From contig CAJNYD010000039.1 in NCBI GenBank assembly GCA_905331295.1, positions 348,734 to 401,530 on the forward strand: a stretch of DNA of 52,797 nt, read 5' to 3'. A model generated the notes under the pieces. That model had not been told where the DNA came from. It ran no database searches and saw only the letters and a list, made by a program, of their open reading frames with translations. The translations under genes and the position numbers were made by a program. Source of the DNA: Rotaria socialis (lineage: Eukaryota). This document shows positions 4,493-52,751 of the stretch, one piece after another; the stretch's first letter is position 1; every line of letters begins with the position of its first letter.

Positions 4493-4980
4493 GAGCTAAA
4501 ATATTTATCTGAAATAAGTAACTTTATCATAAAAAATATCAAGGAACGAACAAGCATACTGCTATATTACTGACAATATGCCATATTTAAACAATATGAA
4601 AAAAAAGCATTTCATCCCATGGAACAAATAAGAGTTCTTAAAGTAACTGAAAGATATTTAACGGAAGTTCCTCTCTTTTTTATATCAGAAAAAAAGCACA
4701 AAAACGAGATTTTTTGAGTAAGGAAATTGAATTAGAATCAGACAGTTTTGTAAAATGGGTAAATTTCTGATTGAACACTTAAAGAGTTCGCTAGTATTGA
4801 AGTACAACAATGAATCTGATAGAGAGCGCTCTTAATCAATCACAATGTAGTGGTTTAGTTTATGTGGTACCCTAAAAAAAATCAATTGCCACCTCAGCAN
4901 AAACACCAAATCTGAATACTGTTACCCAATTGCTAAGCAACTTCTGAATTAATATTTATGTTCTAATTTCTTAATCTTCA

Positions 4981-5146
4981 CAGCACCCACAAGTGCCGAG
5001 CAGGTGCTGAGCAGGTGTTGAGTAGGTGTTGAGTAGGTGCTGGGCAGGTGCTGAGGTGTTGAGGTGCTGGGTAGGTGCTGGGCAGGTGCTGAGGTGTTGA
5101 GGTGCTGGGTAGGTGCTGAGGTGCCAGGGTGCTGGATGCCAGCACT
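4981..5146. repeat. Subterminal tandem repeats (AGGTGCTG / AGGTGTTG units); mirror copy at 8-66
   Basis: Directly visible 8-10 bp degenerate units inside the TIR. Confidence 0.9.
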
Positions 5147-30297: not shown

Positions 30298-31533
30298 GTG
30301 ATAGCTCATCGTCGTATTTTATTTATGATTGGAATCGTAACTGTCATTGAATAACTGTTCTATTTAGTAATACAAGCGGAATTCAAATGACTATTTCCAG
30401 ATGAATGCAACTTTATTATGTAAATATTACATTTAAGGTGAAAATAGATGTTGACGTACGATAGCATTTTTCTCTCAAAAGTTTCATGTGATGAAATAGA
30501 TGAAATTCAAATAGTGTAAACATGCAATAGGATGGTGCTTATACTGATTGGTATTTTATTGCAAGCAGGATAAAAAGTACCACTAAAGAATGGTTTCCCT
30601 TCTTGTTACAAAGAAAATACTTCATCTATCAAAAAAAAACAATACTTTTTCTATTCACTTAGAAACCATTACTCCTTTCTGTCTTCCTACTCGCTTGAAA
30701 AAGCCAGCACAATCAATCTAATCCTAGATTACTGTTGAATAAGTGAGTTTTAACAAAAACATTGACAGCGTTAATTGAGATTTCTAAATTGATGGTATTT
30801 GTGGTTAGACTTGACTATCATGTCACTCAAATTATAGCATCAAGAAAAAATGATGGTATACGTTTTACGCGTTTTCAAGAAATTCCCTTCGTTTACATCT
30901 CTGCAGAATAAAATCTTAATGAACACAATAATCCGAATGTACGTAATAAGCAGAGAAAAATGGTGCTTGCCACCTGGTCATCACCATGGAAAGGAATCAT
31001 ATGTGCTCTTACGTAGCAGTTATATTCAGAGACGTCCCCATAGCATGTGTTTTTGCTCATTCAACATGTCAGCAGTGGATACAGCATTGCGTCGTGAATA
31101 TTTTTGGTATCATCTCGGTTTTCGAAAATCATATGGAAAAAAGCAAAAAAATATAACGCTACTAATAAAGAACGAAAATAGGACAGCAATTTTGACTTGT
31201 TTCATTTCTTAATACATCCTTTTACTTTCTCTCCACTTTCGCTTTATTTTCATTTTGCTTTCTGTCACTTCCTATGTACGTTCTGGTGAATTCTGTCACA
31301 TGTTTTTTCTTTATAGAACACAGAAAGTTTGGATCTTTTTTTCTATAATACAACACGTAGAAAACAAAATGTTTTGATATTTTTTTCTTTTCCTTTTACA
31401 AAGAAATATCTTTATTGTCTATGTAATGAGCAGAAATATGTAAATATTCGTCCTCATTTTACTTTTTCAGCATACTAGAAAAATCATCGAAATAATATCT
31501 CTTGCCTTTCTAATTTGAAACAAACTGCACAGC

Positions 31534-33519
31534 ATGTCGACCGAAAAATTTCGACCTCCTTCGATTCCCTTAGTGACTCACACACCTTACTTTAGTATTT
31601 GGTGCATGGCTAACCAGTTGGCCGACGTATGGAGTACACATTGGACGGGGCATAGTCAATCGATGTGCGGCTTAATTCGAATTGACGGATCTGCTCTGCG
31701 TTTTATGGGTTTGCAGCCAACTGACATCCCAGTTCTTACACAAAAGAGTGTAACCGTGTCAGCGACCACAACCACGTTCGAATTTGAAGAGTATGGTATT
31801 GCTTTGAGCGTAGAATTTCTTTCTCCACTTCTGCCGAAAGATCTTGATCTTCTAACTCGACCTGTTACTTATGTGAACTTTACGTTGCATGCTACAGATG
31901 GAAATGAACATTCTGTAGAAATCTATTTCGACAATACAGCAGAATTGGTCGTCAATGACGTTAATCAAAAAGTCCTTGCAGCACAACACAATGTTAAAGA
32001 CATACAAGTACTCTCATTTAAGTCTGTTGAACAGTTGATTCTCGGGAAAAAAGGTGACGACGTTCGAATAGATTGGGGAATTCAATATTTAGCCATACCC
32101 GAGGCCACACAAGGTCAAACGTTTATAGGTGCCACCGAACTAAGCCGTAACACATTCGCTCATCAAGGCATTTTACCAAATTCCAACACGATGAAGTTTC
32201 CACGAGCTGTCAATGATGATTGGCCAGGTATTTCAGCTGTTCTTACATTTAATAAAGTAAGCCGTTATCCAGTTTCTCGTCATTTATTGCTCGCTTACGA
32301 CGAATTGTATTCGGTCGAGTATTTTCATCGCAAATTGAAACCTTATTGGAAGCGGAATGGTCTTCAGATAGATGAACTATTGATAAGAGCAGAATCTGAA
32401 TACGTTTCAGTTCGTAATCGATGCAATGAATTCAATAGAATACTTCGCCAAGAGTTGAATGATCGCGGTGGAACAAAATATTCAAAAATTGCTGAACTAG
32501 CTTTTCGGCAATGCTTGTCGGCTCACGCCATTGTTCAAGATGTTGACGGCACATTACTCATGTTTAGTAAAGAGAATAGCAGCAATGGTTGTATGGGAAC
32601 AATAGATGTAACCTATCCAGGTGCTCCTTTCTTTCTTTATTTCAATTCAGATCTACTCAAGGCTCAAATTGTACCTGTCCTCAACTATGCTGCAAGGCCA
32701 TCTTGGAAATTTCCTTTTGCTCCTCATGATCTTGGAATTTATCCACAAGCAAATGGACAAGTATATGGAGGTGGTGAACATTCAGAACAATATCAAATGC
32801 CCGTCGAAGAATGTGGTAATATGCTTATTCTAACTGCTGCTGTTTGCAAAATACAAAACAAAACAGATTTAGCTGACCAACACTGGGAAATACTACAAAA
32901 ATGGGCACACTATATTTTGCTATTTGGTTTAAATCCATCAAATCAGTTATGCACAGATGACTTCGCCGGCCACCTTGCACATAATGCTAATCTTTCACTA
33001 AAGGCAATTATGGCGATTGGAGCTTTTGCGAAGCTCTGTGAATTGCGAATGGATAAAACGCAAGCAGATTTTTTCTATCTGATTGCACAGAAAATGGCAG
33101 CCAAATGGCTAACATTAGCCGACGATGGTGATCATTACCGGCTTGCATTCGATAGAAAAGGAAGCTGGAGCCAGAAGTATAATCTTGTGTGGCAACAACT
33201 TTTCAATTTCAATATATTTCCCACTTCTGTAGCACAAAAGGAAATTAATTATTATCTGAAGCATCAGAACAAATTTGGTCTTCCATTAGACTATCGAGCA
33301 GATTATACGAAAGCTGATTGGATTGTATGGACGGCTTGTCTTACGAAAACAAAACAAGTCTTTCAAGCTTTTATCACTCCATTATATGATTTCCTTAATG
33401 TTTCCGTCGATAGAGTCCCTTTTTCCGATCTGTATGATACAAAGACAGGTCGGCAAGTGGGATTCCATGCACGTAGTGTTGTTGGAGGAGTATTTTTACC
33501 ACTTTTAAAACCGTTTTGA
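31534..33519 (+). CDS. gtaA: Glutaminase A family protein (GtaA; DUF4964/DUF5127/DUF4965/DUF1793 architecture), intronless, bacterial-like
   Basis: Intact 661-aa ORF with RPPSIPLVTHTPYFSIW, KENSSNGCMGTIDVTYP, APHDLGIYP, MPVEECGNM, QLCTDDFAG, WSQKYNLVW, YTKADW and ARSVVGGVF. Confidence 0.92.
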   Translation: MSTEKFRPPSIPLVTHTPYFSIWCMANQLADVWSTHWTGHSQSMCGLIRIDGSALRFMGLQPTDIPVLTQKSVTVSATTTTFEFEEYGIALSVEFLSPLLPKDLDLLTRPVTYVNFTLHATDGNEHSVEIYFDNTAELVVNDVNQKVLAAQHNVKDIQVLSFKSVEQLILGKKGDDVRIDWGIQYLAIPEATQGQTFIGATELSRNTFAHQGILPNSNTMKFPRAVNDDWPGISAVLTFNKVSRYPVSRHLLLAYDELYSVEYFHRKLKPYWKRNGLQIDELLIRAESEYVSVRNRCNEFNRILRQELNDRGGTKYSKIAELAFRQCLSAHAIVQDVDGTLLMFSKENSSNGCMGTIDVTYPGAPFFLYFNSDLLKAQIVPVLNYAARPSWKFPFAPHDLGIYPQANGQVYGGGEHSEQYQMPVEECGNMLILTAAVCKIQNKTDLADQHWEILQKWAHYILLFGLNPSNQLCTDDFAGHLAHNANLSLKAIMAIGAFAKLCELRMDKTQADFFYLIAQKMAAKWLTLADDGDHYRLAFDRKGSWSQKYNLVWQQLFNFNIFPTSVAQKEINYYLKHQNKFGLPLDYRADYTKADWIVWTACLTKTKQVFQAFITPLYDFLNVSVDRVPFSDLYDTKTGRQVGFHARSVVGGVFLPLLKPF

Positions 33520-34417
33520 TCTTTCGGTCGATATACGTGATTGATTATACGAAAATCAAGAGACTCTTTTTGGCAAAAGATCAATAAAATAGATTCATAT
33601 CAAAGACTATCAGAAAAAATAAATCTGATTTCAAAATTTGAGATTTTATTTAAAAGATATTTATCACACCGATGCAGAATTCGTCGCTACCCTATGTTAT
33701 AATGGGTGTGGGTGTCTTCCTTACCCACACCGACACCCACACCCATCTGTGTTGCCCGTGCACGTTGAAGCTATCTATCAAAAGATACTTTGCTTTAAAT
33801 AGTTTACAAACGTCAGACATAGCAGTAGCTCTATTCCATGTAAAAAATCAAAAACGACGTATGTGTAAAACAATCATGAGGTAGATCATTCGTTCCATAA
33901 CGATATTTATGCTTCCATTAATATTCAAGTTACACAACAACTCTTTTTTTTTATTTATCAAAATTTAAAAATTCATTCAATGGAGACAATTATCCGAAAC
34001 TAGCAAATTTTTACAGCTCTTTTCCGTTTAAAAAATTGTTCTACTACTGGCATTAGGTCAGATGAAGGAGCAATATGAAACATTTTCTATTACATAGTTT
34101 CTAGTACCTTTAGTCCGTTTAGCACACCTATTTCTTCTGTAAGCTTCAGTTTCTTTCGAGTATTTTGCACCTTTGCTACTCAGGACATTAAAAGGAGTAA
34201 AGGAGGAAGACTGATGCAACTCTTAGAGCTAAAATCAAAACGATATAAATTGTTATTTTTCGCAGACCCACTTCAATGAAGCTGCTGTTGGGCAGGGCCC
34301 TTTACTGAAAGGTAGTCGAAGTAGAAGTATTATTCTACTATAGGTTGCAACGGAATCAAATCTATCTAACACTTTCAGACTGGTACCAGTACGGTTCTTC
34401 AAAAATCTGAACCTCTA

Positions 34418-35476
34418 CACTGAAAAAAAAGGTACCATACCGAACCCTAAAGGTTTCCGATTTTTGCAACCAAATCGAAATCCTTTGAGGTTTCGTAGAA
34501 ATTGGATTTCGTAAAAAGCCTTAATTTTAATAGCTGATAACAGGAGTTTCGTACTTGGGGTTCAGTATAATTCACCACGCAATGTTGAATGAAAGATTCG
34601 CCGGGTGCTATGCTCCATTATGGAAGTAGTTTTCCACCACTATCCACTGCAAAACACACCCACTCTCTAAANNNNNNNNNNNNNNNNNNNNNNNNNNNNN
34701 NNNNNNNNNNNNNNNNNNNNNNNNNNNNNNNNNNNNNNNNNNNNNNNNNNNNNNNNNNNNNNNNNNNNNNNNNNNNNNNNNNNNNNNNNNNNNNNNNNNN
34801 NNNNNNNNNNNNNNNNNNNNNNNNNNNNNNNNNNNNNNNNNNNNNNNNNNNNNNNNNNNNNNNNNNNNNNNNNNNNNNNNNNNNNNNNNNNNNNNNNNNN
34901 NNNNNNNNNNNNNNNNNNNNNNNNNNNNNNNNNNNNNNNNNNNNNNNNNNNNNNNNNNNNNNNNNNNNNNNNNNNNNNNNNNNNNNNNNNNNNNNNNNNN
35001 NNNNNNNNNNNNNNNNNNNNNNNNNNNNNNNNNNNNNNNNNNNNNNNNNNNNNNNNNNNNNNNNNNNNNNNNNNNNNNNNNNNNNNNNNNNNNNNNNNNN
35101 NNNNNNNNNNNNNNNNNNNNNNNNNNNNNNNNNNNNNNNNNNNNNNNNNNNNNNNNNNNNNNNNNNNNNNNNNNNNNNNNNNNNNNNNNNNNNNNNNNNN
35201 NNNNNNNNNNNNNNNNNNNNNNNNNNNNNNNATATTACGAAACCTTTCTGAATACGAAACTCAAAAGAGTTTTTGACCAAACCTCTGTGGCAACGTAAAA
35301 TTCGAAGGGTTCCGGACGAAACCTTTTTATATTTTAAAACTCTTTAAAGTCTTTTACGAAACCTTGGATATCGCGAAACCTCATGCAGGTTTCGCATTAT
35401 TCTACTGATACTTATATAGTATAGTAAAACTCGACGAAACCTCAAAGGTTTCGTGTGGTACCTTTTTTTTTCAGTG
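34418..35476. mobile_element. Non-autonomous EnSpm/CMC element (contains N gap 34672-35231)
   Basis: TIRs CACTGAAAAAAAAGGTACCA and TGGTACCTTTTTTTTTCAGTG, 2-bp TA TSD, CGAAACC/GGTTTCG subterminal repeats. Confidence 0.9.
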
Positions 35477-35654
35477 TATCATCTCTGATATTTTTGCATA
35501 CTCAGTGTGAACTGTTTCATTGATTGCGCTAGTCGATAACTGAGAACTAAGAGTTAAGAATTATAGCTCGATGATTATCGGTGAATAAAATTCGAATTGT
35601 TCAATAATAGAAATAATTCACACTGTTAAAGTATATTTTAGAATACGAAGAACG

Positions 35655-38600
35655 CTACAAAACAACACATAAAGACGAATGAGTTTTTTTTGGTGAATTT
35701 GTCTTGTTCTTTAACATCTTCATATGATTCTCGAATGCAGTTTTCAAATTCTTGTTTCGATCCAACAGCACTTTTTCTGGTGGAAAATTTAATTGCCGAC
35801 CATCTCCAAAAATGATCTTGTCTTCACCATCGAAAGCTATTGCGATACCTTGCAGTAGAGTGAGATATATTATCAACTCAAGCCAGTAAACCTGTCCGGA
35901 ATCGAGATAACGCTTCACGAATTCACTGACGGTAAAACCTTGACAATGAACGGCACTATTATTTTTGATATATGATTTAACCTGCTGCACGAAGTTTGCA
36001 TCCCATAATTCTATATTATCAACGCGATATACTATCCTGTCGAAGACATGGGCACTATAGCGACTGCCATCTCTACCTTCCATAGACATCTCAAATTTCA
36101 CCAAGGCCTGAAACATTATATTCGACTTTTTCTCACCAATCTTATTGAAAGTTTCACGAGCGCTGCTTTTAACCTGGCTGTTTTCATCATTAATTGCCAT
36201 CACCAACTTCTGAATGACTTCCTCATTCAATTCCTCATTTTGTCCAATTTTACCAAGCGCTTCACAAGCCATCTTTCTTAGCTCGAAGTTCTCATCGATA
36301 AGTATTTTGGACAATTCGTTCATTACTTGAGTATTCCTTGCTACATTTTCACCTAGCTTGCAGATAGTTTCACAAGCTGCTAGTTTGACATTATCATGGT
36401 TGTTCTGGAGTACTTCACTGAGCCCTTTCATGATATTTACATTGGATGTTGCTTTTCTACCTATCGTAGCAAGGGCTTTGCAGGCCTCTGTTATTATATC
36501 AACATCATTATGTAAGAGTGCTTTTGCTAATCCATCCATGACTTTATTATTGTCTGCTGCTCTTTCGCCTATGGATAATAGAGCTCTACAAGCTGCGATT
36601 ATTAATTCTTTGCTTTCATCACTGAGTGCTCTTCCCAATCCAGCCATGATATGCTTATCGGATCCTGCTTCATCAGCTACACTGCAAATATCTTCACACG
36701 CTTTTCTTCTAACTGCCTCATTTGTATCTTTGAGTGCTTCCCTTAGTTCAGAGATGATCTGTTCATTCGATACTGCTTCATCACCTATCTTTTTGATGGC
36801 TTCATAAGCATTGTATACGACGAGGCAATTGTCGTTGCTAAGTGCTTTTATTAAATCGTCCATAACATCTTCATTGTTAGCTAGTTTTCCACCTACCTCA
36901 CCAAGGGCATAACAGGCCGCTATTTTAACATTGTCGGACTCGTGCTGATCGCCAATTACTTTGCTAATAGAAATCATCAGTCTTGTGTTAGATGCTGCTT
37001 TTTTACCAATCTTACCAATCAATTCACAAACTTTTCGTCTGATCACCTCGTGTCTATTATGAGCTAGTACTTCTACCAATTTATTCATTAAATCTTTGCT
37101 CCTTGCAGCCTTTTCACCTATCTCGCCGATCATATGGCAAGTTCCTATAATCACTTCGACATCAGGATTCATCAGGCTATTGGCCAGAAACAACATGAAA
37201 TTCTTGTTGGATCCAAATGTTTTAGCTATTTCCTGAAGAGCGATGTTGACACGAAATCTTACAGTGTCTCGTTGATCACTGAATGCTTTTAACAGTTTGC
37301 TCATGACTTGTTTATGGCAAACTGCTTTTTCGCCGATCTCAACCAGGGCTTCACACGCCTCTATTACCAGAGTTTCATCTTCATTGCTGAGAAATGTACT
37401 CAGCTTGTCGAATTCTTCGGTAGTGATTTCTTCTCCGTTCTCGACGCTCCAACGGAGTTGATTATATATGCGGTTTCGATCGATGCGCTTTCGGCGTTCA
37501 ATTTTCCAAACAGACCTTTCGTAAAATAACATTTCGCGATCAAACATTGTCTGAGGTATGCAAATTGACTGCTTCGGATAACGAACTGTCTGCAGCATAC
37601 AATGGCGTCCGTAACTTTTTTCTTCCCTAGATTGGCGAATTGTGCGTTCAGAATTGTTCAGTGGATTGATATCAATGGTCACTGCTAATAGATTACGCCA
37701 TTTGTTATTGTACATTTCATCCCACTTTTTTTTTGCGAGTCCAATCTTGACATGTTCATTCGTAGCTATCCCTTCAGCAATTTTATCAAGAACGTCGCTG
37801 GCATAATCTCGAACAATCTGTTCACGATCCTTCAAGGCTTTGACCAGAATAGCGATTAGTTTTTCATTTGCGATTGGTTTTTCACAGCTTTCTACGAGGG
37901 CTTTTAGTGCTGATTTTCTCACGAAAGCTACTTTATCGTAGACTAATTTAGACAGTGTATTCATAATTTTTTGATAGGATAATGCTTTTCCACACATCTT
38001 ACCAAAGGCTCGACAAGCCGCTACTGTAACAGATACGTCTGGGTCATGCAATCCTTTCTTTATTCCAGCTACGATTAGTTCATTCGTTGCTGCTATTTCA
38101 GCTATCATTCCAACCTGATTACATGCCAATTTTCTAATATTGTGGTCCGGATCAATAATTGCATCCCAAAGTCTGCACACAATTTCTTTATTAAGTATTC
38201 CTATGCTTCTAACCTCATCAATCAACTCATTGGAAATTATTGGCTCTAAATCTTCTAAGGAGATGTACTCGGCAGATTGACGCATCAGCGTGCATCCGTG
38301 GATGTTAGGGGGCAGTGTTGTTTCGTGTACCTCTACAAGAGCTAGATAAGCATTAAGCTTTACAATCGGCTGCTGATCATTGCATGCATGCACGAGTCCA
38401 TCCACGACTTTGCTACGCAACCCTTCTCTCGGTATAGTTAGGTCATATTCAGTCACATACCTATTGTCCTCGTTCTCCACATCCACTTGCATGTGCACAT
38501 TAACCATATTGTCTTCGTTGCATGTTACTCTTTCCCGTATATTGCCGAGCGCTTTACAAGCCATTATTTGGACTTCAGAATTTGGAGTTTTTAGTGCTTT

Positions 38601-41600
38601 CAGCAATGCTTTCTTTACTTGTTCATTCGATATTGCTCTATTACCGATCTTACCCAACGCTTCACAGGCTGATACTTTGACCTCGTCGTTTTCGTCATTC
38701 AGTGCTGCTGCTAATGCAGTCATGATATGTTCATCAGATACTGTTCTATCACCGAGCTCACCCACTGCTTTACAGGCTGCTATTTTGACCTCGTCGTTCT
38801 CGTCGCTTAGTGCTGCTGCTAATGCAGTTATGACTCGTTTATTCGATGTTACTTTATCGCCCATTTCACAGATAAGTCCACATGTCCTTCTTCTAATTTC
38901 TGTGTTCTTACAAGTGAGAGACTTACAGAGACCTTTCATGACTCCTGTAGCCGAAGCTGCTTTTTCGCCTAACACACCAAGTGAATGACCAGCCGCTATG
39001 ATAATTCCATCGTTCTGGTGACTAAGTGCGGAACCGAGTTGATTAAGAATTTCTCGATCAAGTGCTGCTTTGCCACTGATGATTTCAAGAACGTAAATCA
39101 CAGCCGTAAGCGCATTATCTTTCCATTGACAAATTGCTTCCCCCAGTTGAGCAAATATTGTATTATTGCGAACTGCCTCTTCAGCGATATTGACAAGAAC
39201 TTCACAGCTCAGTTTTTTTATATCTTCCTTATTGAAAAGCGTTTCTCCTAGACTGGTCATGACTTTTTCATTCGATGCTACTTTCCCACCAACTTTTTTG
39301 ACAGCGTGACAAGCTGCTATTTTGACTTCATCGTTCGGATCTTTTATTGCTTCTGCCAGTGCATTCATGAGTTTTTCACTTGATGCTACTTTCTCACCAA
39401 TTCCACTAACAACACGACAAACCAAAATTTTAAGCTCATCATTTGAATCCTTCAGTGCAGCTGACAATCCGGACATGACATTTTCATTTAATTCTGCATT
39501 TTTACCGATTTTCTCAAGCCCATGAAGTGCCGCTTTTTTGAAGTCAATATTTGGATCGCCCAACATTTCCGTTAGGCGATCCATTACTAGTTCGGTAGTT
39601 GCTTCTTTTTCAACAATTGCATTCAGGGCCGTATGGGCACCGCATCGTACCTGATAACTTTTATGGCTAAGTAAGTCCACTAGTCGACTTTTCACTTTTT
39701 CGTTGGATGTTGCCCTTTCGCCTATTTGGTGGAGGGCATGACAAGCCGCTACTATCACCTCGTCTTTCGAATTTCTTAGCAAATCTTCAAGTTTGGCAAC
39801 AGTTTGTGTGTCCCACAATACTTGTTTGCTTAATTGGGCTATGGCTCTGCAGGCTTCTATTTTGACAACGTCGTTTTCGTGGGTAAGGGCTTTGATCAGT
39901 TCACACACTATATGCTCATTCGATGCTGCTTTCTCACCTAACTTCTTGAGGGCTCCTTGTGCACTAAGTCTAAGATGATCGCTTTGATCACTAAGTTGCC
40001 TGCCGAGTCCAGCCATTGCTTCCTTGTTTTCAACTACTTCTTGACCCAGTTTACTAAGGGCTTCGCACGCACTTTGCCGCACGTCGTCAGTTGGGTCGCT
40101 TAATGCTATGGCCAGTTGTTTTATGATTTGTTTTTTCGACAGTGCTCTTTCACCTATCTTACCGAGTGCTTCACAGGCACTTTTCCTCACATCATCATTA
40201 GGATCACTGAGTAATTTTTCCAAACCTTTCATGGCTTGCCGATTATCCACTGTGTTTTCACCTATGTAAGCGAGAGCTTCACAGGCTGCTATTTTGACAA
40301 TTTCATTTTTATGCATAAGTGTGTCACTTAACCCAACTAGTATTTCTTCGTCACAATCCGTCTTTGCAACAAGACTGATGAGAGCATGACAAACCGCTAC
40401 TCTAACGTCGTCATCTTGTTCATTCAATCCTTGTCGTATTTCTTCAACAATACGTTCAGTCCACTCTACTTTTTTACCTATTTCACCAAGAGCCTCCCAT
40501 GCCAACTGTCGTATGTTTGCTTCTTTATCATGTAATAATTCTAGGAGCAGCTTTCGAACGCTGTCTTTTTCGTTAGCTGTGACGACAAGATGAGCTAGTA
40601 CTATTATTCCTGCTTCCTTGATATCGTTACTTTCATGCGAACAAGTTTTTTGTATTTTTTGGACGAGTAGCTTTGATGGTTGTTGAAACGGTAGCATTGA
40701 TATAAGTCTGAGTGTTTCATAAAGTGTCTTTATATCATCGATTGATAAGAGAGAAATAAATGTGTTTTGTATCTTTTCCTCTTCGAGTAGTCTAGGTTGT
40801 CGTTTCAATGAAGATTTAAGATGATCAATAACCGTATAGTGTGGATCCATGATAGAAATTTGCAGCCATTCAATGGTTGAGTCAAAGAAATTGCTCTTTT
40901 TCTGCGGTTCGAGATGAATAAACGTTCCACCGAAACATTCAATAAGTAGTTTTGTATGCTGTAGTCCTAATAGATCCCTTGGTGTGTCGTCGATGATGGA
41001 GTAAAGTGTAGTTATTTCTTTCTGATCTTCTAAGACACATAGTTCAGAAGTAAATATCAAGACGGGAGTGAGTTGCTGATCATATTTGTATTTTTTGATG
41101 AAATCGATCACTTGTTTTGAATTACTAGAGTCGAGCTGTCGAACCATGTATCGTGCAGCAAAAAATTCTTGAAAACTCCAATGAAGAAAATAATGCGATT
41201 GTTTAGCTAAGTCATCACTTTTAACATTGCTCGGATCAAATGCTTTCAGAATGCCAAATGATAATAGTTCTACATGGTTTTGTAAGGATAATTTATTTTG
41301 TTCAAGAGCTTTTTCGAACATATCGGGCGGGATTGTCATTTCTTTAGATGACATGGCGTAAAAAGCCAATGTTTCATGGAATTGCAGTAGTATTTTTACA
41401 AAAGCATCGCTGGTTTTAGCTGAGGTATTATTCGCTTTCTTACTATTTTTTCTTCCCCTTAAATATCTCTCAGTTAATTGTTGGATCAAATGTGTGTATA
41501 ACGTAGTTATCGTAAAATCATCTGTCTGAAGTTGGTAGTCTCTATTGCCCCAAAAGTTACAAATCAACTCTAGTAATAGAGGTATATGTGCAACATCCCA

Positions 41601-44600
41601 TAACATAGGACGTCGACGTAAAAATTTCACGAGCTCTTCTTGCTTGAAAGAAGTATTTTTGGGCGGTTGTTCTGACTTTTTGTCAATCTGTTCAAAAAAT
41701 TGCGCCACATACCTTGATATATCATCATCAATAAAGCCTATCATTTCCATTTTCACATCAGACATTAGTGGAAAATTCTGCAGTCGACATGTTACTATAT
41801 AATCATGCTGTGTGACGAGCTCGACTGTTTTCTTTAAGTTTTGTGGACCATTCGCCTGAAATTCATCGTAGCCGTCCAAGATCCATAGAATTTTACCTTC
41901 ATTGCATTGCTGATCAAAAAGCTCATAAGTTTCGTTTGATAAGTCTTTACCGTATAAGTATTCAGTCTTTAATAGATGTATTGGTGTGTATTCAATATCC
42001 GCCGAATACCGTTCACTTGTCAAATTACGTAAACAAATTAGAACAACTAGTTCGTACTTGGACCATATTTCATCTTTTGCCCAACGATAAGTAACATACT
42101 TGCAAAACGTTGATTTTCCAATTCCAGTTCGTCCACAGAGCAACAACTTCTTTGCATGATCTTTGTATTTGTCGAAAATACTCTCTGCACTAATGGAGGA
42201 CGTTACACTGTGAATCTTTTGATAAACACTTGACAATTTAGTATTAAATTTTTGTTTTAGAGAGGCGCGTTCTTGTTTGCCATAGGATCTATTCTGTTTG
42301 GTTAAATTCTTCTCTTTCTGTTCTTGATCATCCATTTCAACTATAGCCAAATTGATGAAGTTGTTTTCAATTGAATAACCTTCTCCTTCATTAAAGATTT
42401 TAGGGATGCGACTTTTTTCTTTGTAGTTTCTTTTGATTATATTAATTATCTTAGATAGATCAAGACAGTATTTCCCAGAGTCGTCCTATGAAGAATTAGA
42501 TAGATTCAATTAAGAAAAGAATTCGAAATCCAGCAATCGAAATAATCATCTGACATGTTCTTTAATAATTAATTCAAATAATCAAAGAATATAGCTTTTT
42601 TCATACAAAATATTACCTTATCGAATGGTAAGTCGGGTCTATATTTGATCTATGTGTGTGTACCTCACTGAATTAGACAGTCTAATTTAAGGTTCCAATT
42701 ATTTCGGAGATTCTGTCAAGGAATTCGATTTTTTTCAGTTCGTATTGTGACTAACAACTGGAATGATACATAACGAAATTGCATGGCCTTAGTGAGAATA
42801 TCTTATCCAATTCTATGTATCAGAATATTTTGATCAACATCTAGTTATCAGGACGTGTATACAATAGCTACGATAAAGTTTGAAAGTAACATTAACAGAA
42901 CACTTATCATCAGTAACAAGACTTCACTAAACAATGTAAAATATTTAAAAAACTTTTTCCATTTGAAAATCTAACAACAATTTTTTCGTACTGCTTTTTT
43001 TTTCGAGGATATATCTCAAGTGTTCATTGACTAGTACTAATATCGGATGTCCTAGGAAGAACAACTTTCAAGATTTTACTGATATCTCCGTCAATTGTTA
43101 TTGGGTTAGGGATAAGTTTTGTTTTTTAAAGATTCATCTCGATGTCCTCTGCTGAAGCCAACAATTCAGATTTTATGCAGATTTACTTTGGATCAGTATT
43201 AAAACGGAAAGGAGAGATATTCAAAAACTAGTTTTTTGTAAATATGAAGACGACGATCACTCGAGCAAGATCAGTGAGGATCTGAATCGATGCGTGAGAT
43301 TTAATACTTCAAAAGTGTATGTGAGATGATTCTAAGTACCAGCTCTATTCATTTATAAATATCATTGGATGGGTCCACGTTTAACTCGAACTACTAAAAT
43401 TATTCAAAAATTCAAGCATAAGCGCATCAAAAACAAGAACCTCATTAGAACTTTAGTCAATGAATATGGGATTTCTAAAACAAAGGTGCACCGAATATTG
43501 TGACATATTCTGAGATGTTATGCCTAATCGACAACAATCAAATCAAAGTAATCCGAAAAACACAATAGCAAACGAAAAACGCTTATTTTTAGATGAGCAA
43601 ATGAGAAAATGTCAATAGATTATAAAATTTCTAAAAAGAATGTATTTGGACAACTAACTGGGCTGAATTAAGTCAGAAAGTTTTCATGAAAAAGAAGCAC
43701 AATTTTTCTTAAAAAGGCAACGTCTGGTAGGTTGCTTGCTTGAAAAGAATGATTCTCTTGCTCTTTTTTACTAAGACATAGTAGCGCATTCTGGATATAT
43801 CGAAAATGTTCTATCGATAGCCGTAAAATATGAAATTACAACTTTTGAAAAGCAATTGACAACTCTAATCAAAGAATATTCGACAGGATATTGCTTCGCA
43901 ATTTTGGTTGTCCTGAAATTCTCGTTTAAAACGAATTTTCGATAATGGTAAATCTTTTTACTAAATTAGTCATAACTTTGCAGAGCACAAAAGGCAGAAT
44001 ATCACAACAAAATTAGTTCTAACGAATAAAAGATGGTAAGAGGCTCATTCTTCCTGGGATACCAGATGCATTGAAATCACGTTCGCCACCAAAGTTACAA
44101 TTTTTTCACAATCGATGAAACTATGAGATTAAATTACTAAGTTAAATACAGGAGGGCGAATCTTAGCGTGATTAGACTAAACACACCCAAGTTTTACAAT
44201 GCTATTCATTCTGAGATATTTTTACATCAGTGACTAGCCTGGATGAAATTCACTGTATTTCGAAATAGTTGAATTTACATGAATATTCATCCTTATATCA
44301 ACTGGCTTCGGTAACTTCACTATATTCGAATTCTAAAACGAAATTCATACGTTACCGATAATCTTTCAGCCAATAATTTTGCTATTCTTGCTGGCATTTC
44401 AGCTATTTTATTCAATATATCCCGTTGATCTTGCCGGGAATTTATTTTATCCATAATAGACACTTGAAACATAATCAAACCACACGATGCTTTCAAATTT
44501 TTATTTAATTTCTCTATATCTTTTGCTGCTCCTTTGTGAAATAAGAATTTAAATGGTTTAAATGCTTTTCTGTGTTTTTCGTGGAATACTTTGAATACTT

Positions 44601-44859
44601 CAAGATCCTCGATTAATATGTTCAATGACTTTTTTAAACTGTCTTTTGAATTCATAGTTGAATCTGCCTCCGCAGAACTGTTGGTTTCCATTATTTCCTC
44701 AAAATTTTGTAACTTTGGTAACTCATCTTTAATGATATCAACTTTTGCAATAAGCCGTTTACATTCTTCATTGTTTTCTTTGTATCCTTCGTAGGCTTCC
44801 TTTAGGTACATTGCTAAAGAGATGCCACCTTTTATTAGACCGACAACTGAATCTGCCAT
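35655..44859 (-). CDS. NLR-like protein: MLKL/HeLo-like N-terminal helical domain, NACHT NTPase, HEAT repeats, C-terminal CaaX (~2455 aa)
   Basis: Proposed exons 44859-44356, 42649-42617 and 42485-35655, all phase-0 GT-AG joins. Walker A GRTGIGKS, Walker [25 protein letters not shown] and [12 protein letters not shown]; many ~39-aa [20 protein letters not shown] repeats; ends CVVL*. Confidence 0.88.
43100..43900 (+). pseudogene. Decayed Tc1/mariner-like relic in the NLR intron
   Basis: Broken HTH-like translation [37 protein letters not shown] at ~43371-43520; shares a 20-bp segment with the MITE at 45684-45703. Boundaries approximate. Confidence 0.45.
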
Positions 44860-49327: not shown

Positions 49328-52128
49328 TCACATTACACAGCAGTCTTGAAATTCAGCTAACTCTCGTACATGCAGATTTTTTATATTTTTTTCAATCGAC
49401 GCTGCTATTGAAGTGTTCTTGTCTTTTCGAGTTAATTGTAATGCCTTGTCGTAAAATGCTAACGCTTGTTTGTAATCACGTAGTTTGTAATAAACAAAGC
49501 CAAGAGTATTGAGAGAGATTGCTTGATTATGAAAATCATTCTTCGGACAAATTTCCAAAGCAGTTTTTAAATTTTGAATTGCCTTTTCCCATTGGCCTGT
49601 CTCCACATAGCTTGTGGCAAGTGATGAATGTGTTAGTGCTAGAGTTTTGTGGGTTGGTGGCATTGAACTCTTGTAAATAGAAATAGTTTGTTCGTACATG
49701 TGTAATGCTTCTGAATGATCCTTGCGGGCACTAAAATAGGAACCCATCGAACAGTACGACATAGCTATATAGGGATGACGAGCAGGTAAACAACGCTTCC
49801 TGATAGCTAGAGCTTCTTGAAGATAGAAGAGCGCTATGTTGAAATCATTTGTTTTCAAATAGCAAAGACCCAGATAATCATATGATATTGCTGTATCGAC
49901 ATGATTATTGCCCAGGTGTTGTTCTCGAATGACTAAAGCTTTCTGATGAAATTCGAGAGACTTTTCCAGATCTTTCATTTGCATTAACAACCATCCAAGA
50001 TCACTATATGTCATTGCAATATTGACATCATCACGGGGTACTTGCTTTTCTTGCAACAAAAGTGCAATATTATAATGTTCAAGTGCAATGGAAAAACGGT
50101 TTGATTCACGATATGCATACGCTAGGTCGTTGTGAATTATCGGTAAATCCTTATGATCCGATGGTAATTGATTAAGCAGTTGGCAATGATAGACAACTGA
50201 ACTGTCAAAATGTGACATGCAGGCAAGTAATTTTCCATAAGTGGAGAAAGTCATTGTGCCATGAGAACATATATTGTCTTTGACATAGTCGACCAACATT
50301 TTGATCTAAATATCGAAAATGAAGTGAAGTAAATGGGATTTTACATACATTTAGAATTTACTGAATGAGACTTAGAGTTGTATTTCTGCGATAGCCTCTC
50401 TTTCGAAAAAAGAATCCTCGAGAAAAAACACATTGAGCTCGACACACAGTTTGTATATGCTTACTTGTGGATCATCATCAATTGTACACATAACCAGTTT
50501 GATGCGCCATACATTCGATGAATCGAATATTTCTTCTGTGATTGAATCGATCCGAAACATTGTACCCATACTCAATAATATTTCTTCTTCATCAGGAATG
50601 CAGCTATGTTCTTTGATATTTGCAAAAGGCGTACCTGCTGCTTGCGCAATGCGGGTATCTATCACCATATCGAATAGAACAATGGCAAAGCCTGGTTCTG
50701 ACACTACATCTCGCATAAAACAAAATTCATCTCTTGATGTTGACACAAAACTATTCATAGAAATAATTCCTCCCATATTGACACGTAGTTTTTCCATTTC
50801 AGATATAGCCACGAGTTGACCACGATACACACGAAATGAGAGTGAACTGTCGGCTATAGGTGTAAACAAATCATTTAGTTGTTGATGGACATCGGTAATA
50901 AACGAGCGAAACTTGAAAATAATATAAAAATCTTGCGTTCTTAATGCTTGATTGAGTAATTTATAGAAACATACATTTCGTGTGAACCAACGAATTGCTT
51001 CACTCGCTGTGTATTTATTTGAAAATTCTTCAATTAATTTGATCTGTTGTTTATCTTTCTTGTATTCTCGACGGCATAGAGAAATCAATTCATTTTGTGC
51101 TTCTTTCTCCAATTTTGGCATATTAATGAGAACATTGGTTAATATTTGAAGCCAAATAAAAGTAGTTTTTTCTTCAATTAAATCTCGTGCTGAGTTATTT
51201 TCAATATTTTTAGTAAATATACTGAACATCAGCATTTTGTCTCTCTTGATAATGTCAGTTTCATTTTCCATGGTGTTGAATGGTGATGTCTAAATAAAAG
51301 CAATGCTATTATCAAACATAATATATCTTTTAATGTGTTTGATTGATTGTGGCATATGTTTAGAAGTGCTGCATATTTCTTTTGATCACAGGCAATGATA
51401 AGTATTATAGTTCTGATTTATGGTAAAAGCTGTTTGGGAGTTTTTCATTTTATAATTTTGATCAAAAATTGCGCTGAAGTGCTTCTTTTTGATGGAATGA
51501 AATGAAATGAAACGAAAATATTGACTTTTTATTCCAACTGATTGATACTTGTAACAAATCGAATTCTGATTTAATAAGTAATTTCTCGTAAAATATCTTT
51601 TTGATGTGAAAAATGCTTCATCTCTCAAATCTATAAAAGATGCCATCCGATTTTATCAGATTCTGTTTGAATCTGACCAACCTTTACATTTATATATTTG
51701 ACTATTAACATTTGAAAATAATACGAAGTGAAATATATGCAAATGATCACTATTTCTACCTCAGTTGTTGTTTCGTTCAGTTCAGTAGTAAGTCGCACAA
51801 TTAGATCATTTTCTTGATCGAATATCTCATCGACTCCAATTTTACCACGTTGAGTTGTCCACGTGATATGTTCACTTGCGTCACAACAATAGATATAAAT
51901 GACTCGCAATTGCGGTAAAATATCAATTAACTCGGCTGTTTGGCTGTCGAACGAGCCAGAAATAATCAGTACCACATTATTATGTGCGGAAGATATTGAG
52001 CAAATGCTATCCACACAATCGACGATGCTTGAATAGGTACTCAAATCTGGTACTATTTTACGAAGACGTTTGGGTACTGTTGAATCTTTGTTCTTATCGA
52101 GCCAAACAACTCTTATAGGCATTGGCAT
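49328..52128 (-). CDS. ADP-ribosyltransferase-TPR protein with an N-terminal alpha/beta domain and C-terminal CaaX (~720 aa)
   Basis: Proposed exons 52128-51760, 51289-50465 and 50305-49328 (phase 0). ART motifs LLNQALR, RVYRGQ, SFVSTS and DEEEIL; kinesin-light-chain-type TPRs (AMTYSDLG, AISYDYLG, AMSYCSMG, AISLNTLG); ends DCCVM*. Confidence 0.88.
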
Positions 52129-52751
52129 GGATGCCGTTGTTTAACAAAAATATACGTTAGATGAAAAATTCAATAGATATTGATTGCTTTTTTTTGTTTT
52201 GTTTGTGTTGTACCATGAAAGCAAAATTTCACATGGGCGTATGCGAGCCGGAGAAAAAAATATTTTGATTTCTTCATATAATTAAAAAATAAAAAAAATA
52301 CATATGCAATCTTTTCGAAAATAATTCATTAAAATCAGTGCTGGAGTGCATTACAATTTATGTTTCTTAAGGTAAATCTACGTCATTGATACAGTCATCA
52401 TCCGAAAATTGAAATCTTCATTCTGTTTTTATTCAATCTAATCTGCAAAAATGAGAGCTAATACTACCAATGAATTCAATATGTATGTTGTTTATTTTGA
52501 ACAATAACATTTGCATCTAGTTGAATATAATCATTCATGTATTATCTTTATGTGTATGAAGAAACAAAGAGAAATTAACAAAACAGTTCAGTAACATCAT
52601 CGGCTGGAAAACATGAAAACAACATGCCCTTTCAGAGCTGAGCAAGTACGGATTTTCTCGAGTAGGAGTACGAGTACGAGTACCAATACTAATTATTGTA
52701 TCAGTAAGACTAAAAGTTTCCAAACTAGTTTGTAAAAAATGTACACTTAAT

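Follow-up and report, generated by a model that had tools for sequence, protein, structure and literature searches.

A probable C-terminal prenylation signal on an NLR-like NACHT-HEAT protein of the bdelloid rotifer Rotaria socialis

A 52,797-nucleotide stretch of Rotaria socialis DNA (contig CAJNYD010000039.1, positions 348,734 to 401,530; "the window" below, in whose numbering positions are given) encodes a large NACHT-HEAT switch protein that ends in the CaaX box CVVL. On balance we think it likely that this protein is geranylgeranylated at CVVL and would thereby be fastened, by the distal end of its HEAT array, to the cytosolic side of a membrane, where it is predicted to watch for infection, and that the anchor is an address module for the sensor (ancestral or repeatedly gained, and lost or replaced in most paralogues) rather than a specific part of a pore-forming machine. 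The protein is probably an immune sensor, the case for such a role being one of architecture; the term "NACHT" does not occur in the available portion of a bdelloid infection transcriptome preprint.

The longest open reading frame of the window (42485-35655, minus strand) translates into 2276 residues, and its product from the first Met onward is identical to database protein P0004, whose cluster has five members, NCBI giving the name Rotaria socialis to four. In order, the product comprises a NACHT domain, a HEAT-repeat array ~1,500 residues long, a conserved domain of 130 residues and a short tail. The features of the gene, all on the minus strand, are as follows:

44356-44859, minus strand: likely first exon, an open exon that ends in the phase-0 donor G/GTAACG and encodes a 168-residue four-helix-bundle head, an MLKL/HeLo-like candidate
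42486-44355, minus strand: putative phase-0 intron, G/GTAACG ... TCTTCATAG/GAC, with matching donor and acceptor phases, linking the upstream exon to the NACHT exon
41691-42146, minus strand: NACHT NTPase core, residues 114-265 (Pfam NACHT E 8.9e-10, above the cut-off)
36105-40712, minus strand: HEAT-repeat array of ~1,500 residues, the putative sensor (Pfam HEAT_2 E 9.7e-108)
35706-36104, minus strand: conserved C-terminal domain of ~130 residues, helices plus a three-stranded sheet (101 hits, 53 clusters)
35670-35705, minus strand: Lys/Ser/Thr-rich linker before the Cys, predicted to be unstructured (AlphaFold2, 39-row alignment)
35655-35669, minus strand: CaaX box C-V-V-L plus TAG stop, from the translation (Cys codon 35669-35667, stop 35657-35655)

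Comparison with nine relatives shows that the NACHT motifs are intact (Walker A GRTGIGKST, Walker B WILDGYDE and the sensor-1 Arg), as is the winged-helix motif FLHWSFQE, which lies farther along than the NACHT core, and a PDB sequence search gave weak matches to NLRP9 and NLRP5 (E 0.002-0.01). The 23 Pfam matches to the long-frame product include no LRR family, and the repeats belong to HEAT/ARM families only; because HEAT repeats stand in place of LRRs, the protein is by its domain matches an NLR-like STAND receptor and not an NLR in the strict sense (NACHT plus LRR). The repeat array has two peculiarities. At about window position 38600-38800 (minus strand, approximate) the window allele is 72 residues, or two HEAT units, shorter than the three other cluster members compared (2226 versus 2298 aa), which may be repeat-number variation in the sensor or assembly collapse; and two ~100-residue non-HEAT inserts, at approximately 37420-37750 and 38250-38500 (minus strand), interrupt the array and are possible integrated domains or read-through introns. 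The C-terminal domain was modeled by AlphaFold2 on a 39-row alignment with a mean pLDDT of 83. Fold searches with it gave no Foldseek match under E 0.001, a best Z of 6.9 and Atlas scores of 0.77, a sequence search with the C-terminal 157 residues alone recovered only their own cluster, and none of 196 pattern matches in viral contigs was a relative; such blank or weak fold, sequence and viral-contig searches are compatible with relationships that may exist.

The C-terminal CaaL box of the original prediction is real in the translated frame, where CVVL immediately precedes the TAG stop, and the same end is common to four of the five cluster members, the fifth being a shorter model that diverges mid-HEAT (the 21 residues quoted in that prediction extend to 35720, a few bases past the 35715 it gave). 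The box fits the GGTase-I substrate rule in having Cys at -4, an aliphatic a2 and Leu at X, and rotifers are assumed to have the standard animal prenyltransferases. According to the available text of PMC1175975, GGTase-I prefers Leu or Met at X, some Leu-ending boxes are farnesylated too, and the PrePS rules call for a CaaX box with about 11 small, flexible, hydrophilic residues upstream. A predicted flexible linker of ~11 residues agrees with this spacing here, in that the last helix of the AlphaFold2 model stops 11 residues before the Cys, the last 8 residues have pLDDT values below 50, and the linker is composed mostly of Thr, Asn, Ser, Pro, Lys and His, with Leu at -1. The 17 residues preceding the Cys include five Lys and no acidic residue (net +5), just two of these Lys being in the last 11 and none adjoining the Cys. 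A candidate for the polybasic second membrane signal that had been claimed is present in this protein, but a net charge of +4 or more occurs in just two of the nine CaaX carriers described below, and the basic patch is modest and not conserved in the family. By chance about 0.12% of family-like tails should have an end of the form C-x-[VIL]-[LMF]; 4 of the 1,559 window reading frames of at least 20 aa have one, two of the four being real genes.

With the NACHT region as query we retrieved 59 proteins, 1263-4022 residues long, and 13 of them, the window protein included, have Cys at -4. Relatives from locus searches (25 bacterial-genome loci and the best 80 of 98 metagenome loci) and from a profile search (nine proteins) were added, and our census of the family, which is incomplete, is made up of these NACHT-region, locus and profile searches. 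Only stop-closed sequences with the C-terminal domain entered the tail count; the 101 hits fell into 53 clusters at 80% identity. P0043, which is probably a bacterial row, is in this set, as is at least one partial model (P0033), and a last intron could go unseen at those ends that come from open frames or prokaryotic gene callers. Cys is found at -4 in 9 of these 53 non-redundant relatives (8 of 52 without the window protein), whereas its frequency over the remaining 29 tail positions is 2.1% (binomial P 1.8e-6, with no correction for kinship). The nine boxes are CVVL, CMIL, CVVS, CNIM, CTCF, CILL, CTLL, CIIL and CSLM; a2 is V, I or L in eight of them (background 0.26) and X is L, M or F likewise in eight (background 0.21). 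Ser-Ser stands just upstream of the Cys in seven of the nine carriers versus 2 of 44 non-carriers, and all nine have tails that reach at least 8 residues beyond the C-terminal domain, Cys at -4 being present in none of the 26 short-tailed members. Three carriers have a second Cys just upstream of the box that could be palmitoylated. The original prediction was to fail if homologues lack a Cys at -4; among them the terminal CaaX is recurrent and canonical, though 44 of the 53 relatives lack it, including the best-scoring NACHT hits P0008-P0012, and the window gene's nearest tree neighbours (P0037, P0042 and L095) are without it. A chance tetrapeptide is rejected by the enrichment of Cys at -4 and the canonical a2 and X residues in relatives. 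We are reasonably confident, on these sequence comparisons, that the tail is a selected prenylation signal.

Other kinds of ends are found in the family as well. A hydrophobic, transmembrane-like segment, a possible tail anchor, replaces the tail in two members (L041, 10992-11474, and L086, 7332-7874; also P0077), and the strongly basic tail of L074 (~4930-5016, net +9) ends in TCSS with Cys at -3 and may be what is left of a CaaX or an anchor that works by charge alone.

The history of the box was followed on a NACHT tree of 51 rows, which contains 45 of the 54 rotifer-clade rows (nine near-duplicates without CaaX were dropped) and six outgroup rows; a wider 93-row quick tree omitted six fungal and three short rows. 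In the 51-row tree the rotifer clade has support of 100/100, and its sisters are the gammaproteobacterial genome rows L001 and L002 together with P0043. This nesting among bacterial rows suggests that the NACHT-HEAT family was acquired horizontally, from a donor that is unsure because of the long branches. These sister rows have weak C-terminal-domain matches and no CaaX, and since L001 and L002 lack it, descent of the CaaX from the closest relatives in bacteria is unsupported. A bacterial origin of the metagenome loci was rejected, since they show GT-AG introns in the TIR head and L026, the one locus viewed gene by gene, has intron-split neighbours.

The CaaX carriers do not sit together in the rotifer clade but are dispersed close to its base. 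On the quick NACHT tree they need 4 changes versus 6-9 in 300 shuffles, and their placement as a single clade is rejected (AU p 1.5e-5). A two-state model on the quick tree favours a CaaX root by 5.0 log-likelihood units, with a loss-only model equal to the best gain-loss model (lnL -12.39 for both); under equal-weight parsimony the root state is tied in 270 of 300 bootstrap trees, and once a gain is charged twice as much, 286 of the 300 give a CaaX root. An ancestral CaaX that was lost several times is thus favoured over repeated gain by likelihood and by weighted parsimony, and either history, an ancestral tail with repeated loss or repeated gain, implies selection.

In the mechanism that we propose, GGTase-I would add a geranylgeranyl group to the Cys of CVVL, as Leu at X suggests, the five lysines would make acidic membranes, for example those of the cell surface (plasma membrane) or of endosomes, the preferred site, and the prenyl group would hold the end of the HEAT array at the cytosolic face of that membrane. 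Binding of a ligand to the HEAT array would lead to ADP/ATP exchange and oligomerisation of the NACHT domain, and this would cluster whichever head the paralogue has: TIR, ADP-ribosyltransferase or, here, probably the four-helix bundle. In most paralogues the anchor would have been lost or replaced, twice by a hydrophobic tail.

The original prediction gave the anchor a more specific purpose, the pre-positioning of a pore-forming receptor; spelled out, the lipid would station an MLKL-like protein that upon activation would oligomerise and perforate the very membrane holding it. We think this unlikely. The long frame begins right after a phase-0 acceptor at 42486, the donor of the intron upstream of it is similar to TIR-intron donors in related loci, and the four-helix exon likely belongs to the window gene. 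The 168-residue head resembles the N-terminus of paralogue P0037 (BLASTP E 2e-5, a score reached by 0 of 2,000 shuffles), which stands with the window gene in one four-row clade (98/93) of the 51-row tree. In a single-sequence model (pLDDT 66) the head folds into a four-helix bundle with one further helix, and its best Pfam match is MLKL_N (E 0.011). Among its Atlas neighbours, which score 0.94-0.95, PigL_N accounts for 24-29% of members and SesA for 13-26%, both being N-terminal domains of fungal NACHT proteins; these likenesses, and that to P0037, favour a pore. However, the MLKL_N match is sub-threshold (15.7 bits versus a cut-off of 27), the NCBI gene models start at the NACHT exon and omit the head, and ~2,200 residues separate the lipid from the head. 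A fold search with the head found generic four-helix bundles (best Z 12.7) and no MLKL chain among the best 50 matches, and a PDB sequence search found one weak apolipoprotein match. The head is possibly MLKL/HeLo-like on these matches; that it is a membrane-damaging four-helix bundle is a suggestion that we make tentatively.

Heads vary among members of the family, being TIR_2 (PF13676), ART (PF01129) or four-helix; CaaX carriers whose head can be identified have mostly TIR (L032, E 5e-18; P0021; and P0040, by its locus), while CaaX is absent from P0037 and P0038, the two complete relatives whose head is likewise four-helix. The anchor does not depend on the type of head and is therefore not tied to pore formation as had been proposed; for the family as a whole, an address for the sensor is a better account than a pre-positioned pore, though the window gene may combine both.

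An improbable alternative is that the motif has no function or is decaying. It would then be a remnant, surviving here by accident, of an ancestral tail that the family at large is losing and that may have come from an effector secreted by an intracellular bacterium. Most paralogues do lack the motif, and the loss-only model above fits equally well. CaaX-like boxes also end some non-rotifer NACHT-HEAT proteins that group with gammaproteobacterial rows, namely P0045, P0046 and P0048 (CSIQ) and P0049 (CKIL), all four with trypsin-like heads, and locus L011 (7743-11798, CTIS). To our knowledge bacteria have no CaaX prenyltransferases. Hosts prenylate bacterial effectors (PMC2916131, in the part available), and these non-rotifer proteins could be host-prenylated effectors of intracellular bacteria. 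But the nearest bacterial rows, L001 and L002, are without the motif, the box is found in 1 of 19 closed NACHT frames of the bacterial loci versus 6 of 193 other frames, and the window gene sits on a branch of about one change per site and yet has kept a perfect box and Ser-Ser spacer, both of which neutral decay would erase.

There is a very small chance that in this gene CVVL comes from in-frame reading of the last bases of a 61-base intron, in which case the mature protein would end otherwise and have no CaaX. The DNA of the tail does look like a 3' splice site (a branch-like CTCAT, a T-rich run and TGT GTT GTT TTG TAG, with GTTAAA 61 bases upstream), T-rich acceptors easily translate as Cys, Val and Leu (Cys at -4 in 68 of 1,016, or 6.7%, of acceptor-like controls), the linker alone is only modestly like other tails (~2% of controls match its score), and AATAAA is absent downstream of the stop up to a transposon-like insert; but the candidate donor would be T/GTT, whereas all 10 readable TIR-intron donors in related loci, read by eye, start with GTA after G or A, the NCBI gene models retain the tail, and in a profile made from eight other tails the window tail outranks all 1,016 acceptor-like in-frame TAG controls, only 2 of 27,273 stop-terminated 12-mers not scoring below it. 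The CaaX relatives for which DNA is at hand (L026, L029 and L032) end in TAA and use different codons, and a splice-acceptor artefact across the family was rejected on account of these TAA ends.

The surroundings of the gene gave some further observations. The transposon-like insert (window 34401-35493) lies ~165 bases downstream of the NACHT-gene stop. It has inverted repeats (34401-34457 and 35436-35493) on either side of an assembly gap and resembles a non-autonomous DNA transposon of 1.1 kb. An intronless glutaminase GtaA-type gene (31519-33519, plus strand; DUF4964, DUF5127 and six-hairpin) is a neighbour of the NACHT gene and was likely acquired horizontally. A neighbouring intron-split gene (49328-52140, minus strand) has an ART domain and TPR repeats and ends in the CaaX-like CCVM*; none of 10 TPR frames in related loci has a CaaX-like end, and this one may be chance or mark a second prenylated bdelloid family.

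Taking the sensor-address reading further, we can sketch a scenario to which we give somewhat less than even weight. Bdelloids would have taken the NACHT-HEAT chassis from intracellular gammaproteobacteria, added the CaaX at the root of the family and expanded the repertoire, with independent exchange of the head, which may be TIR, ADP-ribosyltransferase or an MLKL-like bundle, and of the membrane address, which may be a geranylgeranyl or farnesyl group, a hydrophobic tail or nothing; these would be the first prenylated NLR-type receptors, and in the present gene the lipid anchor would be coupled to a membrane-attacking head. The analysis exposes a sizeable, apparently undescribed bdelloid NLR-like gene family nested among bacterial sequences, which bears on how asexual bdelloids detect pathogens. 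No paper on bdelloid NACHT-HEAT proteins was found in the literature searched, where bioRxiv supplements may list such architectures. That no C-terminally prenylated NLR is known, as the original prediction had it, agrees with our search, in which no C-terminal prenyl anchor on an NLR-type receptor was found described, most subscription journals being outside its coverage.

Several known systems share part of this design. Fungal NACHT-HEAT/ARM NLR-like proteins (P0051-P0064, with HeLo-like, PigL_N or SesA heads) have the same tripartite layout of helical head, NACHT and HEAT/ARM, but they form a separate clade in the 93-row tree and no fungal-named hit ends in a CaaX. Known routes of NLR-type proteins to membranes are S-acylation, N-terminal lipids and transmembrane heads. 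Bacterial NACHT-HEAT proteins resemble the rotifer family in combining a variable effector, NACHT and a repeat sensor; bacterial NLR-related NACHT proteins include HEAT among their repeat types, and repeated transfer from intracellular bacteria to eukaryotes has been proposed (Kibby et al., bioRxiv 10.1101/2022.07.19.500537), in a paper whose main text, as far as available, has neither "rotifer" nor "prenyl" and whose supplementary table may list such architectures. NLRP3 is S-acylated at the membrane (PMC11392533, partial text) and anthozoan connexin-NLRs have an N-terminal transmembrane domain (bioRxiv 10.64898/2026.06.13.731801, partial text). Both are NLRs at a membrane, like the rotifer protein, and NLRP3 pairs its lipid with a polybasic patch; they differ in their LRR sensors and in the means of attachment, which is a reversible S-acylation inside the protein or a transmembrane domain at the N-terminus, whereas the prenyl group predicted for the rotifer protein would be C-terminal and irreversible.

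The tails of Rho/Rac proteins and K-Ras4B consist of a polybasic stretch plus a CaaX. The rotifer tail is like them in having a CaaL box after a flexible Lys/Ser-rich linker and unlike them in that only two Lys lie in the last 11 residues, away from the Cys, and in that the cargo is a solenoid of 250-270 kDa rather than a small GTPase. Among cell-autonomous immune proteins of vertebrates, GBP1, GBP2 and GBP5 are prenylated. ZAP-L and OAS1 p46 are also prenylated vertebrate immune proteins (PMC7756014, partial text), and a review of inflammasome modification treats prenylation, in its available part, for small GTPases only (PMC9253692). In ZAP-L, OAS1 p46 and the GBPs, as is predicted for the rotifer family, a cytosolic immune protein is brought to a membrane by its C-terminal CaaX, and here as there only some isoforms or paralogues have the motif; these vertebrate proteins differ from the rotifer protein in having no NACHT switch or HEAT array, and their prenylation is experimentally shown where that of the rotifer protein is predicted. 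If the prediction is true, the rotifer family would parallel these vertebrate proteins, in which gain or loss of a CaaX sets the site that a sensor patrols.
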